From an uncultured Chitinophagaceae bacterium (lineage in GTDB: Bacteria; Bacteroidota; Bacteroidia; NS11-12g; UBA9320): a stretch of DNA of 64,000 bases. The number at the start of each line of letters is the position of its first letter. The stretch's first letter is position 1. Position numbers and translations under genes: made by a program. The notes under the pieces are model-generated. The model saw only the letters and a program-made list of their open reading frames with translations. It searched no databases and was not told the origin of the DNA. Below are positions 4,334-27,496 of this stretch, one piece after another. Where the stretch lies: positions 83,419 through 147,418 of the forward strand of contig CAZTGZ010000002.1 in assembly GCA_964613385.1 (NCBI GenBank). Direction: 5' to 3'.

Positions 4334-5020
4334 TCAAAGAGTGAACTCCAGCTTTCGGTAATCCTCTTCCTCCGATATGTTCGCAATTTCGAAACTTAAA
4401 AACATGATTTTCTTGCCTTCGAGCAACCATTTCTTTTCATAAAATGTTTGTATCTGAATCAAATCTGTCCGGCTTTTATCGGCATAAACATCAGGTATAT
4501 CATGCCAAACTTTCAGGTTCAATTGATGAATTACCTCTTTGGTGAACTCATACAATTCTGCACTGTCTGTTTTAAGATGAACCCGCAGGTCTGTTTGCCC
4601 AATATTTTTAAATTTTTGTAAAAAAACAGGATGGGTCAATCTTTTTTTCGCTTTGCCTTTTCTTAAATGAGGATCGGCAAAAGTGATCCAGATCTCAGAT
4701 ACTTCACCGGGGTCGAATTGCGATTCGATATGGCTGATTTGTGCCCGCAAAAAAGCCACATTGTGAAGGCCTTTATCTATGGCTGACAGAGCGCCCCGCC
4801 ACATTCGATTTCCCTTAATATCAACTCCAATGTAGTTGGCTTCCGGCCGGAGTTCTGCCAAACCCAAGGTATATTCTCCTTTACCACAGGCTAATTCAAG
4901 CACGATCGGACGTGAATTTTCAAAAAAGTCACTCCATTTGCCTTGCATGGCAGATGATTCCTCGAAAGTGTTGGGAAAGGAGGAGAATTCTGCAAAACGC
5001 TTGAGTTTTTGTTTAGCCAT
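4334..5020 (-). CDS. trmB: tRNA (guanine-N7)-methyltransferase
   Basis: SAM-MTase motif LELACGKGEYTLGLAELRPEANYIGVDIKG and TrmB-like length (228 aa). Confidence 0.8.
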   Translation of the reverse strand: MAKQKLKRFAEFSSFPNTFEESSAMQGKWSDFFENSRPIVLELACGKGEYTLGLAELRPEANYIGVDIKGNRMWRGALSAIDKGLHNVAFLRAQISHIESQFDPGEVSEIWITFADPHLRKGKAKKRLTHPVFLQKFKNIGQTDLRVHLKTDSAELYEFTKEVIHQLNLKVWHDIPDVYADKSRTDLIQIQTFYEKKWLLEGKKIMFLSFEIANISEEEDYRKLEFTL

Positions 5021-12579: not shown

Positions 12580-12954
12580 TTGCCCATGAAAGGTTGGTAT
12601 ACCCTCCTTTTACTCGTACTTTCAAATGTTTTTATGACCCTGGCCTGGTATGGGCATCTGCGATTTGCCCATTGGAAACCACTGGAAAAGGTCGGGTTGT
12701 TTGGCATTGTACTTCTCAGTTGGGGGCTGGCATTTTTCGAATATTGTTTTCAAGTGCCCGCCAATCGCATTGGATTCCAGGGTAATGGAGGGCCATTCAG
12801 CCTATTTCAGCTCAAGATTATTCAAGAAGTCATCACCCTCGCGGTTTTTGTGATTTTTGCAACACTTTTATTTAAGAACGAAAGTCTGAAAATGAACCAC
12901 TTATGGGCGTTTTTATGCCTGATAGGAGCCGTTTACTTCGCTTTTAAGAAATGA
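12580..12954 (+). CDS. Small DMT-superfamily-like (DUF486) membrane protein
   Basis: Four TM helices, 124 aa. The annotated start is TTG; an ATG two codons downstream is also possible. Confidence 0.45.
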   Translation: MPMKGWYTLLLLVLSNVFMTLAWYGHLRFAHWKPLEKVGLFGIVLLSWGLAFFEYCFQVPANRIGFQGNGGPFSLFQLKIIQEVITLAVFVIFATLLFKNESLKMNHLWAFLCLIGAVYFAFKK

Positions 12955-14345: not shown

Positions 14346-14440
14346 AAAAAAGACGATCCCGCATATAGCGGGACCCTCTTAAATGTTTTCACTACGGAAT
14401 AATCCTTATTGTGATTTGCTTCATTGCAAAAATAATAATT
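14346..14440 (-). ncRNA. tracrRNA: tracrRNA of the adjacent type II-C CRISPR-Cas system (anti-repeat, nexus, terminator)
   Basis: The minus-strand transcript reads 5'-UUUUUGCAAUGAAGCAAAUCACAAUAAGGAUUAUUCCGUAGUGAAAACAUUUAAGAGGGUCCCGCUAUAUGCGGGAUCGUCUUUUUU-3'. The anti-repeat pairs with the minus-strand repeat GUUGUGAUUUGCUU (G·U at repeat nt 1, then 13 WC pairs, then G·U at U15), followed by a 4-nt bulge and a 5-bp upper stem. The nexus-like AAGGAUUAUUCCG resembles S. pyogenes AAGGCUAGUCCG. A GC hairpin followed by a U6 tract forms an intrinsic terminator. The 5' end is uncertain. Confidence 0.65.
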
Positions 14441-14469: not shown

Positions 14470-17400
14470 ATGACTTTAAGATTAGGGTTAGATATCGGAG
14501 TTAATTCCGTTGGGTTTGCGTTGGTAAGAGAAGAAAACAACGAAAGTAAAATTGAAAAGTTAGGGGTAAGAATTGTTACAGAGGATCCAAATTTTCACGG
14601 CAAATTTTATCAGGGAAATACGGCCAGTAAAAATGCAGAAAGAAGATTAAATCGTGGCGCTCGACGAAACTTGGATCGTTATCAATTGAGGCGAGATAAA
14701 CTGATAGAAATTCTCGAAGACACAGGAATGATGCCGGATGAAGACCTGCTCTTAAAGATAAGCAGTTTGGAATTATACGAATTGAGATATAGAGCAATTC
14801 AAGAAAAACTCAGTTTACCCGAATTAGGCAGAATATTTTATCACCTCAATCAGAAACGCGGTTTCCAAAGCAGTAGAAAAGGAAATAATGAAGAAAATGA
14901 AACCGAATACAAAAAAAAGCTCAAAGAAAATTCAGAAGGCTTGGGTAGCCAAACCATTGGTGAATATTTTTATCATAAACTAATGGATAATCCATGGTAC
15001 AGAATCAAAGAAAATTTGTTTTTCCGTTCTGATTATAAGGCGGAATTTGACCGAATTTGGGACAAACAATCAAATTATTATCCGAATTTAATGACCGGAG
15101 GTCCAAAAAATACCAACAATAAGGGAACTCTTTACAGTCTGATTCGAAATAAAACCATCTATTTTCAAAGGCCTTTGAAATCAGCTAAGAATTTGGTAGG
15201 AAAATGCACTTTTGAACCTTTAAAAAGAGTTATTCCAAAAAGTCATCCTTTATATCAGGAGTTTAGAATTTGGCAACAATTGAACAATCTTGAAATTACG
15301 CATGAAAATGTAAAATTAATACCAAATGAAGAACAAAAAACATTGTTATGGACAAAGTTGCACGAACCATCTCAATTAGACAAATTGGGAAACCTTACAG
15401 CCGCAAGTATTAAAAAAGTATTGGGCATCAACAAAAACGCAACAGTCAATTATGAAAAAATTGAAGGCAACAAAACTCTCAGAGCAATCAGCAAGGCGCT
15501 GGAGGCTGTTGACTTGGATTACAATTTTGAAATGCCCGATTTAAAGAATTTAAGGGAATTTGAAAACACAAACTTTGTTAAACTATGGCATTTGACATAC
15601 AGTATTGAGAATGAAAATCATCTTATAAACTGTCTAAAAAAGCAATTCAATATTGAAGCAGAGAAAGCTCTATACATAGCTGAAAATGTGGGATATACTT
15701 CCGATTTTGGTAGTCTTTCAGCAAAGGCTATTAAGAAAATTCTTCCCGGTCTTTGGGACGGAATGAAATACGACCAAGCTGTTCAGAATGCAGGATATAA
15801 ACACCACAGCAAATTTGAAGATAATCAAGCTGTGTTAGAATTTTTACCGAGTATCAAACCCAATACATTAAAAAATCCTGTGGTAGAACAAATCTTAAAT
15901 CAGGTAGTAAATTTGGTAAATAATATTATTCAAGACTATGGCAAACCCGATGAAGTAAGAGTTGAATTGGCCCGGACTCTTAAATCAAACGCCAGAGAAC
16001 GAAATTCAATATCAAAAAAACAGAGAGATTTAGAAAAAAAGAATAAAGAAATAATGGAGGAATTGAAAAACTATCCTCAATTCAAAAGAGTCAGTGGTAG
16101 AGATTTAAAAAGATATCGGTTGTGGGAAGAGACCGATAAACTTTGTTTGTATTGCGGACAACCAATTTCATTTGAACAGGTATACAACGGAATGGCAGAA
16201 ATTGAACATATCATACCTAAGTCGCGCATTTTTAGTGATGCCATGAGCAATTTAGTATTAGCCCATGTCAAGGAAAATCGGGAGAAAGGACAAATGACTG
16301 CATATGAGTATCTGGAAGGAAAGGGACACAATTTGCTTAAGAATTATGAAGAATTAGTATCCAAACTTTATAACGAAAAAAAGATTACCAAATCAAAATT
16401 TTCTAATTTAATGATGAAAGGTGGGGATATTCCAAGCGATTTCCTCGAAAGACAATTGAATGACACACGATACATTTCACGAGAAGCTCTTAATATTCTC
16501 AAACAGGTATTTCCAAAAGTTTATTCCACTTCGGGTTCAATTACAGATTTATTAAAACAGAACTGGCAATTAAATCATGTATTGGAGGAAATTAATTTGC
16601 CTGTATACAGAAAAGAAGGTCTAACCTATAAAACAGAAATTAAAGATAATTCCGGGAATATAAAAGTAGTTGAACGAATTAAAGATTTTGACAAAAGATC
16701 CGATCACAGGCACCATGCGGTTGATGCTTTGGTTATTGCATGCACCAAGCAGTCATATATTCAAAAGCTCAATAATCTGAACAAAGAATTTCAAACTTAC
16801 AATAGCTTAAAACAGAGCCCATATGAGTTTGAAATGCCATCAAAACATTTTCGTACAGATGTCATAGAACATTTATCATCATTATTGATTAGTTACAAGA
16901 AACCGGGTACAAAAGTCCTATCAAGAAAAATAAATATTTATAAATCTGCCTCAGGCCCAAAGAAACAAATAACCTGGGCACCCAGAGGATCCTTACATGA
17001 AGATACGGTTCTAGGAAAAATTAAAAGGTATTCAAAGCCGAAAGATTGGAAAGATATCATTTTGAACCCTCAGAATATTGTGAACGAACAAGTAAGATTG
17101 GCCGTTAATGAATTATTAGCTCAACACAAAGACCCTAAAGGCGCTCTGGCGTATTTAAAAAAGAACAATTTAGAAATCAATGGGATTGAAGTAAAACATC
17201 CGTTGCTTTGGGAATATAAATTCACCAAAAGAGTAAGAATTTCGGACAACATTACTCAACCCCAAATTGATAAAATCATAGACGGAAGAGTCAAAGACTT
17301 AATTTTAGAAAGGATAGAAAATTACGGGAGCATAAAGTCTGCTTTTAAAAATTATATCGATAACCCTATATTAATTGATATAGGGAAAAAGGTCCCTTTA

Positions 17401-17886
17401 AAAGCAATAACGGTTCGGGATGAGGGCAACTTGCAAAGTGTAAGAAATGGAAATGTTTATTTAAAAGGGAACCATCATGCTCTAATTTTTCAAAGTGAAG
17501 AAGGTGAATATCAGGAAAAAATGGTTAGTTTTTGGGAAGCTGTTGAACTGGCATTATGGAATCTGAATAATACTGGCAGTATTTACCCTATCATTGATCG
17601 AAATCCAAATGATTCTGGTTTACCGTTAAAATACAGCTTACAAATAAATGATCTCTTTGTAATAGGAAATCATCCAAATGAATTGAGTCAGGCTGAATTG
17701 TCTTTATCTTTATTTCGAGTACAAAAGCTGTCAAAAGGAGATTATTTTTTCCGGCAGCAATATCAGACCAAAATTGACATTGACAAAGAATTCTCTATGA
17801 GACGGATTAATTCACTTAAAAAATTCAATGATATCTATAAAATTAGGCTAAACCATGTGGGTAATATTTTACAAATTGGAGAATAA
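14470..17886 (+). CDS. cas9: Type II-C Cas9 endonuclease (1138 aa)
   Basis: RuvC-I motif at the N-terminus (LGLDIGVNSVGFALV). HNH motif (EIEHIIPKSRIFSDAMSNLVLAHVKENREKGQ). RuvC-III (HHAVDALVIA). The track ORF's upstream extension (14383-14469) overlaps the antisense tracrRNA and is judged non-coding. Confidence 0.9.
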   Translation: MTLRLGLDIGVNSVGFALVREENNESKIEKLGVRIVTEDPNFHGKFYQGNTASKNAERRLNRGARRNLDRYQLRRDKLIEILEDTGMMPDEDLLLKISSLELYELRYRAIQEKLSLPELGRIFYHLNQKRGFQSSRKGNNEENETEYKKKLKENSEGLGSQTIGEYFYHKLMDNPWYRIKENLFFRSDYKAEFDRIWDKQSNYYPNLMTGGPKNTNNKGTLYSLIRNKTIYFQRPLKSAKNLVGKCTFEPLKRVIPKSHPLYQEFRIWQQLNNLEITHENVKLIPNEEQKTLLWTKLHEPSQLDKLGNLTAASIKKVLGINKNATVNYEKIEGNKTLRAISKALEAVDLDYNFEMPDLKNLREFENTNFVKLWHLTYSIENENHLINCLKKQFNIEAEKALYIAENVGYTSDFGSLSAKAIKKILPGLWDGMKYDQAVQNAGYKHHSKFEDNQAVLEFLPSIKPNTLKNPVVEQILNQVVNLVNNIIQDYGKPDEVRVELARTLKSNARERNSISKKQRDLEKKNKEIMEELKNYPQFKRVSGRDLKRYRLWEETDKLCLYCGQPISFEQVYNGMAEIEHIIPKSRIFSDAMSNLVLAHVKENREKGQMTAYEYLEGKGHNLLKNYEELVSKLYNEKKITKSKFSNLMMKGGDIPSDFLERQLNDTRYISREALNILKQVFPKVYSTSGSITDLLKQNWQLNHVLEEINLPVYRKEGLTYKTEIKDNSGNIKVVERIKDFDKRSDHRHHAVDALVIACTKQSYIQKLNNLNKEFQTYNSLKQSPYEFEMPSKHFRTDVIEHLSSLLISYKKPGTKVLSRKINIYKSASGPKKQITWAPRGSLHEDTVLGKIKRYSKPKDWKDIILNPQNIVNEQVRLAVNELLAQHKDPKGALAYLKKNNLEINGIEVKHPLLWEYKFTKRVRISDNITQPQIDKIIDGRVKDLILERIENYGSIKSAFKNYIDNPILIDIGKKVPLKAITVRDEGNLQSVRNGNVYLKGNHHALIFQSEEGEYQEKMVSFWEAVELALWNLNNTGSIYPIIDRNPNDSGLPLKYSLQINDLFVIGNHPNELSQAELSLSLFRVQKLSKGDYFFRQQYQTKIDIDKEFSMRRINSLKKFNDIYKIRLNHVGNILQIGE

Positions 17887-17895
17887 AGCCAAGCA

Positions 17896-19145
<1,250 letters not shown>

Positions 19146-19245
19146 AAAAAACAGGAATTTTCAACTTTGGTACATGAAATCCACGATTTTTTTCGACAAC
19201 AAACAAAGCTGTAACCCTTTGTTTATAAGGGCTACAGCGAGGTCT

Positions 19246-22200
19246 GTTGTGTTCAAAGAACGGTTCTTCTGATTTTGAAAGCAAATCACAACCTTTCCTA
19301 ATTCTTTATTCATGATGTTCTTGTTGTGTTCAAAGAACGGTTCTTCTGATTTTGAAAGCAAATCACAACGGTGTAGATGCAATAGAGATTTCCCAGAAGG
19401 TTGTGTTCAAAGAACGGTTCTTCTGATTTTGAAAGCAAATCACAACTGTTGCACATAGCTCAACATGGCCATTGCGTTGTGTTCAAAGAACGGTTCTTCT
19501 GATTTTGAAAGCAAATCACAACGCTTTTTGTCAATTTGTGACAAGTCATATAAGTTGTGTTCAAAGAACGGTTCTTCTGATTTTGAAAGCAAATCACAAC
19601 AGCTCATGTAAACGCCCTTGCAATGGCGGCGTTGTGTTCAAAGAACGGTTCTTCTGATTTTGAAAGCAAATCACAACCTGTGCTTGTTGCTCTATTAAAA
19701 GAGCCTGTGTTGTGTTCAAAGAACGGTTCTTCTGATTTTGAAAGCAAATCACAACTGATTCGTAAAGGTTTTCAATCAAGGTCAAGTTGTGTTCAAAGAA
19801 CGGTTCTTCTGATTTTGAAAGCAAATCACAACCTTACTGGATTGCAACATTCCAGAATGTACGTTGTGTTCAAAGAACGGTTCTTCTGATTTTGAAAGCA
19901 AATCACAACTATTCATTCGTTCTCCTATCCACTTTGCAAGTTGTGTTCAAAGAACGGTTCTTCTGATTTTGAAAGCAAATCACAACATGAGCGTAGGACT
20001 CACCGGAGCTGTGGACGTTGTGTTCAAAGAACGGTTCTTCTGATTTTGAAAGCAAATCACAACCACCGAGCAGTTTAATATCTCCGCTGTCTTTGTTGTG
20101 TTCAAAGAACGGTTCTTCTGATTTTGAAAGCAAATCACAACGGCCGTCAAAAATGAACTTATCAATTATGTGTTGTGTTCAAAGAACGGTTCTTCTGATT
20201 TTGAAAGCAAATCACAACTATCAACCACAAACGTGTGCAATAGTTCAGTTGTGTTCAAAGAACGGTTCTTCTGATTTTGAAAGCAAATCACAACCATCTG
20301 CAGTAAGGTTCAATGAGGTTGGCAAGTTGTGTTCAAAGAACGGTTCTTCTGATTTTGAAAGCAAATCACAACTTATGCGCAAACCGCCTTAATACCATTG
20401 TCGTTGTGTTCAAAGAACGGTTCTTCTGATTTTGAAAGCAAATCACAACTGCGGAGCTGCACAATTTGTTGTCAGAAACGTTGTGTTCAAAGAACGGTTC
20501 TTCTGATTTTGAAAGCAAATCACAACTGTATATGGATGATCCAAAATCCTTGCTATGTTGTGTTCAAAGAACGGTTCTTCTGATTTTGAAAGCAAATCAC
20601 AACTTACAATGGGTTCTGCCTTTACGGCTTTTGTTGTGTTCAAAGAACGGTTCTTCTGATTTTGAAAGCAAATCACAACTGCAGGATTATTTGGATGTTG
20701 TCCGGTTGGTTGTGTTCAAAGAACGGTTCTTCTGATTTTGAAAGCAAATCACAACCGTTTAGGGAATACCCTTAATGACTTTTGTGTTGTGTTCAAAGAA
20801 CGGTTCTTCTGATTTTGAAAGCAAATCACAACACGTTGGTGTGTATGGCATAGCTGACGGACGTTGTGTTCAAAGAACGGTTCTTCTGATTTTGAAAGCA
20901 AATCACAACACGTTACGCGATTTGATACGGCTGAATTGAGTTGTGTTCAAAGAACGGTTCTTCTGATTTTGAAAGCAAATCACAACCTGACAATCTTGCG
21001 CGTTGAATGAATCCACGTTGTGTTCAAAGAACGGTTCTTCTGATTTTGAAAGCAAATCACAACGGCCGTCGAAAATAAACTTATCAATTACGTGTTGTGT
21101 TCAAAGAACGGTTCTTCTGATTTTGAAAGCAAATCACAACGTTTCATCTTTTCGTCGTTATCCCCAACTGGTTGTGTTCAAAGAACGGTTCTTCTGATTT
21201 TGAAAGCAAATCACAACTTAAAGACTGCATTATTGTACTTTCTGTCAGTTGTGTTCAAAGAACGGTTCTTCTGATTTTGAAAGCAAATCACAACCAATGC
21301 TACACAGGGCTTGAATGCGTTTGCGTTGTGTTCAAAGAACGGTTCTTCTGATTTTGAAAGCAAATCACAACGACTTTACGCGGCTTTACCTCTGTATTTA
21401 TGTTGTGTTCAAAGAACGGTTCTTCTGATTTTGAAAGCAAATCACAACTCCAGCAACGTGTTTATTGTTTGAAATCTGGTTGTGTTCAAAGAACGGTTCT
21501 TCTGATTTTGAAAGCAAATCACAACTTAACGAGTGCAACAACGTAACATGGGAAGTTGTGTTCAAAGAACGGTTCTTCTGATTTTGAAAGCAAATCACAA
21601 CGGCATGGTGTTTGGTTGGGTAGGTGTTGCGGTTGTGTTCAAAGAACGGTTCTTCTGATTTTGAAAGCAAATCACAACCAAGAAAGCGAAGAAACTCTTC
21701 AGGTGTTAGTTGTGTTCAAAGAACGGTTCTTCTGATTTTGAAAGCAAATCACAACTTAGTTACCAGCATAAGTGGCGGAACTTTTGTTGTGTTCAAAGAA
21801 CGGTTCTTCTGATTTTGAAAGCAAATCACAACCGTTCCTAACGTTACCCATGTAATAGATTCGTTGTGTTCAAAGAACGGTTCTTCTGATTTTGAAAGCA
21901 AATCACAACTCCTTCTGGCTCTATAAAAGTTCAAAGAAGTTGTGTTCAAAGAACGGTTCTTCTGATTTTGAAAGCAAATCACAACTCTGAGTGCGTTGAA
22001 TACTTGAACGCCAATGTTGTGTTCAAAGAACGGTTCTTCTGATTTTGAAAGCAAATCACAACTTACTTCATATGATTCCGGTGGTGGAAATGTTGTGTTC
22101 AAAGAACGGTTCTTCTGATTTTGAAAGCAAATCACAACTAAGGTAGTGTAGTTCGTTCCGTCAAATTTGTTGTGTTCAAAGAACGGTTCTTCTGATTTTG

Positions 22201-23290
22201 AAAGCAAATCACAACTTCTTCCGTGGAGTTTGTTAAACCATTGATGTTGTGTTCAAAGAACGGTTCTTCTGATTTTGAAAGCAAATCACAACAGTTTGTT
22301 ATTAGTTTGATTTTACTTCACTGTTGTGTTCAAAGAACGGTTCTTCTGATTTTGAAAGCAAATCACAACTGTCCGGCAATGCTAACAAATATCTACGCGG
22401 TTGTGTTCAAAGAACGGTTCTTCTGATTTTGAAAGCAAATCACAACTAGATGTTCATACATTTGGTCTTGTGTCATGTTGTGTTCAAAGAACGGTTCTTC
22501 TGATTTTGAAAGCAAATCACAACCAGATCCATACGGTGGAGAAGTGAAAAAGGTTGTGTTCAAAGAACGGTTCTTCTGATTTTGAAAGCAAATCACAACT
22601 ATAAACGTAAGCACCCCAATTTCCGTAAGGTTGTGTTCAAAGAACGGTTCTTCTGATTTTGAAAGCAAATCACAACCAAACCACAACGAAACATTAATTC
22701 AGAGAAGTTGTGTTCAAAGAACGGTTCTTCTGATTTTGAAAGCAAATCACAACGCGTCAATTCTAACTTATCAACCGCATACGTTGTGTTCAAAGAACGG
22801 TTCTTCTGATTTTGAAAGCAAATCACAACCGGTTGCGCCCGATACCGCCTCGCCAATTGGTTGTGTTCAAAGAACGGTTCTTCTGATTTTGAAAGCAAAT
22901 CACAACTATTCCTGACGTTCGTCATGGGCGTGACAAGTTGTGTTCAAAGAACGGTTCTTCTGATTTTGAAAGCAAATCACAACTACGCCTGTCAGCTCTC
23001 TTTTGTCTGCGAGGTTGTGTTCAAAGAACGGTTCTTCTGATTTTGAAAGCAAATCACAACTCCATCTCGAAAAGGTAATTCCGTCCAATGTTGTGTTCAA
23101 AGAACGGTTCTTCTGATTTTGAAAGCAAATCACAACTGCCCAGCCCCAGAGAGTTGTGTCAATACTGTTGTGTTCAAAGAACGGTTCTTCTGATTTTGAA
23201 AGCAAATCACAACAAAAATAGAAGTCGTATTCGTTCATGTACTGTTGTGTTCAAAGAACGGTTCTTCTGATTTTGAAAGCAAATCACGAA
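19246..23290. CRISPR. CRISPR array of about 53 repeats and 52 spacers; 47-bp repeat GTTGTGTTCAAAGAACGGTTCTTCTGATTTTGAAAGCAAATCACAAC, spacers 29-30 bp
   Basis: Regular 76-77 bp periodicity from 19246 to 23290. The terminal, cas-distal repeat (23244-23290) is degenerate at its last 6 bases (…CACGAA instead of …CACAAC). The repeat has GTTGTG/CACAAC termini typical of Bacteroidetes II-C arrays. Confidence 0.95.
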
Positions 23291-23456
23291 AGATTTATTC
23301 TATTGTGTAGCTAAAAATTGTTGTACTCAAAGACAAATATTGACAAACTGTTTCATGGGTTGGAATAGTCGTTTTTCCAGACATTAGTGTCTAGCTTGTA
23401 CCCGTGATGCCTACAGATGTCTAAATTGCATTCATGCATCGAAACTGCCTCAACAA

Positions 23457-26074: not shown

Positions 26075-27496
26075 CTACCCCAACTCATATTCCTGCTTAA
26101 AAACAGGCAGCTCAATTTTACCAAATCCGTGCTGTTTCATCGCATCTCTGAACATTTCTCTCCGATCGTTTTCGCCATGAACGAGAAAAACTCTTTTCAA
26201 TCGATTCTTATCGAGTCCCGACAAATATTCCAGCATTTCCTTTTCATCTCCGTGCGCACTGAAACTGTCCAGAATTTCGATACTGGCGCGAACCGGTATC
26301 TCTCTCCCATGAATATGTACCCGATCCGCTCCGTTGCGCAAATGTGAACCTAAAGTGCCCTCCGCGCAATAACCCACCACCAATACCGTTGTGTCCGGAT
26401 CTGCCAGATTGTTCGCCAAATGATGTTTTACCCGGCCGGCATTCATCATACCACTCGCACTGATTATAACGCAAGGTTCCCGATATTCATTGATGGCCTT
26501 AGAGGCCTCTACACTTCGCACATAACTCAATCCATTAAATCCAAACGGGTTGGGGTCTGTAGCCATATATTCGGTAAGCTCCTCATCGAAACACTCGGGA
26601 TGCATGAGAAAAATGTCCGTAGCATTCACGGCAAGAGGACTATCCACAAATACCTTCACCCTGGGCAATTGACCCTGATTCGCCAGTTGGTCGAACATGT
26701 ACACAATTTCCTGTGTCCGGCCCACACTAAAGGCCGGGATAATCAATCGACCCCGCTTCTCGACACATGTTTCCCGGACTATACGCAGCAATTCGTTCAG
26801 ATCACTGCTTTCCTTCTCATGTTGCTGACCGCCATATGTGCTTTCACAAATCAGAAAATCCAAATCCGGCATGGGATGCGGATCTCTTAAAATAGGTCGG
26901 TGCGGACGTCCAATATCACCGCTGAACCCGAACATCACCTCCCTCCCGTCTGCCTGCTTAATCTTTAACGTAACCGATGCAGAACCCAGAATATGTCCAC
27001 TATCCCGAAACAAAACCGAAACTCCCCTGACCATCTCATACCAGCGATTGTAACCGACCGTAATAAACTGATCTATGCTGCGTATAGCATCTTTTAAGGT
27101 ATATAAAGGTTCAACCTTTTCCTTTTTGCCTCCGTGCCCGGGAGAATGTGCCATGCGTTGTGCGCGATACTGTGCATCCCGCTCCTGTATCATGGCGCTG
27201 TCCTGTAACATAATGGCAGCCAAATCGCGGGTGGCCGAAGTGCTGTAAATCTCTCCTTTAAAACCATCCTTCACCAATTTTGGAATCCTACCGCTGTGAT
27301 CGATATGCGCATGTGACAAAACCATCAGGTCAATTTCAGCCGGATCAAATGCCCATTGCTCATTGAAATGCTCATAACCTTCTTCATGTCCCTGATACAG
27401 ACCGCAATCCAACAATATTTTCAATCCGGTATCTGTAGTGAGTAAATGACTACTTCCGGTCACCGTTCCGGCTGCTCCACAAAATTTTACTTTCAT
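26075..27496 (-). CDS. MBL-fold metallo-hydrolase with beta-CASP/RNA-metabolising domain
   Basis: Metallo-beta-lactamase motifs (LLDCG, HAHIDHSG) and a C-terminal beta-CASP-like region. 473 aa. Confidence 0.6.
   Translation of the reverse strand: MKVKFCGAAGTVTGSSHLLTTDTGLKILLDCGLYQGHEEGYEHFNEQWAFDPAEIDLMVLSHAHIDHSGRIPKLVKDGFKGEIYSTSATRDLAAIMLQDSAMIQERDAQYRAQRMAHSPGHGGKKEKVEPLYTLKDAIRSIDQFITVGYNRWYEMVRGVSVLFRDSGHILGSASVTLKIKQADGREVMFGFSGDIGRPHRPILRDPHPMPDLDFLICESTYGGQQHEKESSDLNELLRIVRETCVEKRGRLIIPAFSVGRTQEIVYMFDQLANQGQLPRVKVFVDSPLAVNATDIFLMHPECFDEELTEYMATDPNPFGFNGLSYVRSVEASKAINEYREPCVIISASGMMNAGRVKHHLANNLADPDTTVLVVGYCAEGTLGSHLRNGADRVHIHGREIPVRASIEILDSFSAHGDEKEMLEYLSGLDKNRLKRVFLVHGENDRREMFRDAMKQHGFGKIELPVFKQEYELG

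Follow-up and report, generated by a model that had tools for sequence, protein, structure and literature searches.

The window (i.e., the whole stretch of DNA that was analysed, 64,000 nucleotides of a contig from an uncultured Chitinophagaceae bacterium) holds a complete type II-C CRISPR-Cas system of Bacteroidota. Its genes follow each other in the order cas9-cas1-cas2, and the array comes directly after cas2; the upstream neighbour of the locus is an isocitrate/isopropylmalate dehydrogenase gene on the opposite strand, and the downstream neighbour encodes a CHU_C/T9SS (type IX secretion) protein. The features of the locus are as follows:

14346 to 14435, minus strand: predicted tracrRNA, directly upstream of cas9 and on the opposite strand to it (its 5' end at about 14435).
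14470 to 17886, plus strand: cas9, 1138 amino acids, matching RuvC_III (9.6e-43), HNH_4 (5.3e-18) and Cas9_a, the alpha-helical lobe (2.6e-07).
17896 to 18810, plus strand: cas1 (PF01867, E = 2.9e-27).
18807 to 19145, plus strand: cas2 (PF09827, E = 2e-18).
19146 to 19245, no strand assigned: probable leader and insertion end, between cas2 and the first repeat.
19246 to 23290, minus strand: CRISPR array, 53 repeats of 47 nt and 52 spacers.
23244 to 23290, minus strand: terminal, most cas-distal repeat of the array.
23320 to 23366, minus strand: decayed relic of a 54th repeat.

Because neither csn2 (II-A) nor cas4 (II-B) was found in the immediate neighbourhood of the locus, its layout is that of type II-C; and since cas9, cas1, cas2 and the tracrRNA are all there, the capacity for acquisition is present. 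All of the named relatives returned by a Cas9 protein search are Cas9 or carry the older name Csn1, and they belong to Bacteroidota (Chitinophagaceae and Bacteroidetes MAGs). One NCBI protein of 1138 amino acids (P0001) is 100% identical to the Cas9 of the window, the closest Cas9 after it in the collection searched is only 60% identical, and exact look-ups of Cas1 and Cas9 returned no other assembly of the same organism. To judge from these sequences, the host lineage is poorly sampled. The longest open reading frame would start cas9 at 14383, a start that we rejected: its first 29 codons are not Cas9-like and the frame runs over the tracrRNA, and the typical Cas9 N-terminus (MTLRLGLDIGVNSVG) begins at 14470. 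Automatic annotation may over-extend the gene to 14383.

The predicted tracrRNA is made up of an anti-repeat (TTGCAATGAAGCAAATCACAA), a nexus-like element (TAAGGATTATTCCGTAGTG) and a GC-rich terminator hairpin (GGTCCCGC-TATAT-GCGGGATC) followed by T6. The partner of the anti-repeat is the plus-strand repeat read as its reverse complement (GUUGUGAUUUGCUU…), with which it forms 13 contiguous pairs (UUGUGAUUUGCUU with AAGCAAAUCACAA) and a further CAAAA/UUUUG stem. A scan of the window by energy and score was not specific for this site: a site at 26801-26860, the best of the energy scan, scored as well, and was rejected as lying inside a gene for a beta-CASP/metallo-beta-lactamase RNase. The tracrRNA was established by its position and by comparison with three related loci (L008, L009 and L010). 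Its core is found at the same place upstream of cas9 in L008 and L009, whose Cas9 is 60% identical to that of the window, and in L010, where the identity is 51%. The repeat of L010 is 36 nt long (…GAAAGCAATTCACAAC), and its anti-repeat reads GCAATTCACAA where the window has GCAAATCACAA, a compensatory A/T change in repeat and anti-repeat by which each anti-repeat fits its own repeat. L010 retains a terminator hairpin of different sequence, and the sequences of L008 and L009 end before the terminator. On this comparison, conservation and compensatory change among the relatives confirm the identity of the predicted tracrRNA.

Given the orientation of the tracrRNA, the crRNAs come from the minus strand and are transcribed towards cas2. 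In this sense the repeat reads GTTGTGATTTGCTTTCAAAATCAGAAGAACCGTTCTTTGAACACAAC (GTTGTGTTCAAAGAACGGTTCTTCTGATTTTGAAAGCAAATCACAAC on the plus strand) and contains TTTG-N20-GTTCTTTG, which ends 8 nt ahead of the spacer; the repeats of L010 (from about 12767) have, in the corresponding position, a -7 box (TAAATTTG) that fits the Bacteroidetes type perfectly. These motifs suggest that each repeat may have a promoter of its own, as reported for other II-C arrays.

The array spans 19246-23290, and its 53 repeats bear out the count of 52 spacers made in the first-pass annotation. Spacing is regular along its whole length, and most spacers are 30 nt long (38 of 52), the others being of 29 nt (10 of 52) or 31 nt (4 of 52). 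Repeats 1-52 are identical to each other (52/53), and the terminal repeat differs from them at 2 of 47 positions (…CACGAA vs. …CACAAC on the plus strand). The relic of a 54th repeat lies 29 nt past the terminal one; 12 of its first 14 nucleotides still match, as do 19 of 47 overall, and it shows where the old (trailer) end of the array lies. A further repeat-like stretch of 25 nt at 26836-26861 (22 matches, one gap) falls inside a beta-CASP/metallo-beta-lactamase RNase gene and was judged to be a chance resemblance.

At each insertion the repeat adjoining the insertion site is copied, and it must therefore be intact. Because the cas-distal end of the array has decayed repeats, it is not the end at which spacers are inserted. 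Transcription of II-C arrays is reported to begin inside the repeats and to proceed towards the variable (leader) end, with spacers whose PAM-adjacent end is turned to the leader (PMC8092290). The minus-strand sense of the crRNAs, as set by the tracrRNA, agrees with this. Together with the decay at the cas-distal end, the reported polarity puts the probable leader at 19146-19245, with new spacers entering at the cas2 end and spacer 1 as the newest, and the PAM would adjoin the low-coordinate end of each spacer. At the PAM-proximal end, the first base is T in 25 of 52 spacers.

The leader holds a 12-bp hairpin (19208-19238) that, in a scan for terminators, is followed by a T-run on the minus strand. 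A hairpin of different sequence stands at the equivalent place in L008 (about 4868-4898) and in L010 (about 12731-12761; both by a count along the printed sequences), but the minus-strand T-run is found in the window only. The hairpin is probably a terminator of antisense (minus-strand) array transcripts, and perhaps forms part of the leader. In the closest relative (L008, Cas9 60% identical; Logan assembly SRR14932521), at positions 4775-4960, a leader and one degenerate repeat come after cas2, and a hipA/HTH toxin-antitoxin pair comes next; the single repeat reflects either an empty array or a collapsed assembly.

Within this array, two spacers are nearly the same:

20142 to 20171, crRNA from the minus strand: spacer 12, plus-strand sequence GGCCGTCAAAAATGAACTTATCAATTATGT, guide (its reverse complement) ACATAATTGATAAGTTCATTTTTGACGGCC.
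21064 to 21093, crRNA from the minus strand: spacer 24, plus-strand sequence GGCCGTCGAAAATAAACTTATCAATTACGT.

Both are 30 nt long, both are flanked by perfect copies of the 47-nt repeat, and they agree in the same register at 27 of 30 positions (90%), differing at plus-strand positions 8 (A/G), 14 (G/A) and 28 (T/C), each a transition. The first-pass annotation had drawn attention to the pair, and the coordinates, sequences, identical boundaries and 3/30 differences that it gave were all exact when read again.

If two unrelated sequences had happened to supply such similar spacers, this would have to be attributed to the AT-rich, low-complexity middle that they have in common (AAAAT.AACTTATCAATTA), and nothing more speaks for such a coincidence. 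We carried out the pairwise scan that had been proposed along with the pair, comparing each of the 52 spacers with every other one, in both orientations and at shifts of up to 12 nt, with 200 shuffles of the spacers as a control. The next-best pair has at most 16 matches, against the 27 of spacers 12 and 24, which are the sole near-duplicates in the array; and the best pair in the shuffled spacers had 16-20 matches. With 27/30 matches in register, as compared to no more than 20 in 200 shuffles and no more than 16 in any other real pair, the probability that the two arose from unrelated sequences is practically nil, and we consider this explanation refuted.

A second way of obtaining the pair requires only one acquisition, after which the spacer-repeat unit was duplicated to a place 12 units away through recombination between repeats, and three point mutations followed. 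Identical register and length would then be automatic, and each of the three differences is of the kind that arises spontaneously most often, a transition. Nor does the coding-like pattern of the differences count against random mutation: in a minus-strand frame the two spacers read IIDKFIFDG and VIDKFIFDG, i.e., two synonymous changes and one I/V change, which fits the divergence of a coding gene but is not significant, as 69% of random triple transitions give at most one amino-acid change in some open frame (P = 0.69), and we dropped the substitution pattern as evidence for a coding target. However, recombination between repeats copies blocks in tandem, and here spacers 13-23 have no second copy, and the neighbours of the two copies (11 and 23, 13 and 25) are unrelated. 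Moreover, all but one of the 53 repeats agree and the oldest has changed at only 2 of 47 positions, against which three changes in 30 in the middle of the array are disproportionate; repeats being under selection, this comparison is not decisive. Arrays turn over faster than they mutate, and spacers common to several strains are nearly always identical. On these three grounds, duplication followed by mutation is very unlikely.

The two spacers might also have been acquired in different cells or strains and brought together later, whether by array recombination, by horizontal exchange of array segments, or, if the sequence is from a metagenome, by chimeric assembly. The sequence is known from one NCBI contig (155.6 kb) without a close relative, and the GTDB representative genomes do not contain its spacers, both of which are compatible with a metagenome-assembled genome; and arrays of identical repeats are prone to mis-joining. 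Against this, the array carries no sequence sign of a join, with regular spacing and perfect repeats throughout, and the longest exact stretch common to the surroundings of spacers 12 and 24 is 54 nt (the repeat plus 7 nt), which the usual assembly word sizes and read lengths should be able to resolve. We regard later joining as unlikely, and it would in any case still involve two independent acquisitions, changing their history but not their mechanism.

The pair is therefore probably, and we say this with some confidence, the product of two independent, PAM-registered acquisitions of a homologous protospacer from two variants that had diverged by about 10%. The earlier proposal of two acquisitions from variant alleles thus stands as the best explanation, with chance excluded and duplication plus drift unlikely, though it has no recovered target behind it. 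Cas1-Cas2, the adaptation machinery of the II-C system, with Cas9 presumably selecting the PAM, would have made two separate captures at the same protospacer site and next to the same PAM, in two variants of one mobile element or gene. The identical boundaries are accounted for by the shared PAM together with the tight 30-nt length rule (38/52 spacers). From the polarity of the array, rather than from array comparisons between strains, we infer that spacer 12 is the younger of the two, such that the spacer 24 allele would have been captured first and the spacer 12 allele twelve insertions later. That the same site should be used twice is not implausible: under simple assumptions, with 10-20 spacers taken from a single element family and 300-1000 sites that can be used, some site recurs with a probability of 4-47%, which would be higher if there were protospacer hot spots of the kind reported for a Bacteroidota II-C system.

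With the polarity given above, the three differences stand at 8, 14 and 28 nt when counted from the PAM-proximal end of the spacers. A divergence of 3/30 (10%), distributed both inside and outside of the seed, resembles standing variation among related elements more than it does an escape mutant arisen in a single step. Cross-recognition is probably weakened by the mismatches 8 and 14 nt away from the PAM, such that each crRNA probably recognises the allele of the other poorly; keeping both spacers would then widen the coverage of the invader population, and the younger spacer 12 plausibly restored immunity.

The first-pass annotation had also expected the pair to give a direct handle on the PAM and the target. 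This expectation failed, in that no protospacer was found in the window, INPHARED, PLSDB, IMG/VR, the GTDB representatives or the JGI contigs, and BLASTN searches of phage and plasmid databases, of the kind that it had suggested, gave no spacer match above chance level. When both alleles were covered by one pattern and up to 3 mismatches were allowed, nothing else in the window matched, nor did any of the 52 spacers match the remainder of the window at up to 6 mismatches; there is thus no self-targeting within the window. In IMG/VR, we found 0 matches to the pair in the form of exact, IUPAC, codon-degenerate (minus and plus frame) or 20-22-nt core patterns, and likewise 0 matches to the cores of spacers 1 and 13. 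Against the INPHARED phages (50,697 records), blastn of each spacer returned only matches with E = 0.2-8, and the whole array had no match at E <= 1. In the PLSDB plasmids, the whole array gave no spacer match by blastn at E <= 1, the matches being another CRISPR array and two chance ones. Matches to terminase/encapsidation genes of Lactococcus and Clostridium phages (in frame, VENKLI and VKNEL) were set aside, having been picked from hundreds at chance level.

A codon-degenerate pattern in the minus-strand frame had one match among the GTDB representative genomes and four among JGI metagenome contigs, the latter 5-9 positions off the spacers. The GTDB match (L001) lies in a long open reading frame whose product, judged by eye, resembles an ABC-type permease; two of the others (L002 and L004) have the same sequence, and the remaining two (L003 and L005) lie in GC-rich DNA. 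All five were taken as chance matches and rejected as targets. The phage and plasmid collections searched contain no sample of this lineage's mobile elements.

Independent capture of matching spacers is a kind of event that is already known. In Sulfolobus islandicus, matching spacers that differ by SNPs and occupy different array contexts are a signature of independent acquisition (Held et al. 2010, PMC2946923). As in that archaeon, the pair described here carries SNPs and sits in unrelated array contexts, a situation that was read there as separate captures from the same pool of viruses or plasmids (PMC2946923). The S. islandicus cases, however, were mostly between strains, often offset in register and of type I (PMC2946923), whereas ours is within one array, in the same register and of type II-C. 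One protospacer has also been captured repeatedly during adaptation in the laboratory (PMC5071653).

A close comparison is also offered by the II-C locus of Flavobacterium columnare, whose spacers go back to a limited set of protospacers (Hoikkala et al. 2021, PMC8092290). With that of strain B185, the present locus has in common the cas9-cas1-cas2-array order, a leader adjacent to cas2, crRNAs directed towards the leader, and the PAM-adjacent end of the spacer facing the leader (PMC8092290). It differs in its repeat, which is 47 nt here and 36 nt in F. columnare, although the II-C repeats of the other species compared were on average 11 bp longer (PMC8092290). Unlike in B185, there is no co-resident type VI-B array within the window. 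Taken as a whole, the locus is a divergent but otherwise ordinary type II-C system of Bacteroidota.

Under type II-A priming, as Nussenzweig et al. reportedly described it in 2019, a perfect match is needed and new spacers come from around the cut site, not from the same protospacer; here, in contrast, the same protospacer would have been taken again. Such 'primed' acquisition in type II-A depends on cleavage by Cas9, and by it an existing spacer raises the uptake of spacers from the same element (PMC8092290). A related process could be imagined for this array, in which the crRNA of the older spacer 24, mismatched at 8 and 14 nt, bound or weakly cut the variant and thereby steered adaptation back to the same protospacer. 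We consider this highly improbable; were it true, the capture provoked by spacer 24 would amount to a type II-C mismatch-primed re-acquisition, by which an outdated spacer is refreshed in place.

Under the two acquisitions that we favour, the pair exemplifies a phenomenon already known, here in a lineage of which few members have been sampled, and the practical yield of the analysis is the annotation of the crRNA strand, the tracrRNA, the leader end and the true start of cas9. If the target were to be found, the pair would represent two natural alleles of one protospacer and would thereby offer a small natural test of the tolerance of a Bacteroidota II-C Cas9 for mismatches 8 and 14 nt away from the PAM; it would also mean that one family of invaders had met this lineage at least twice.
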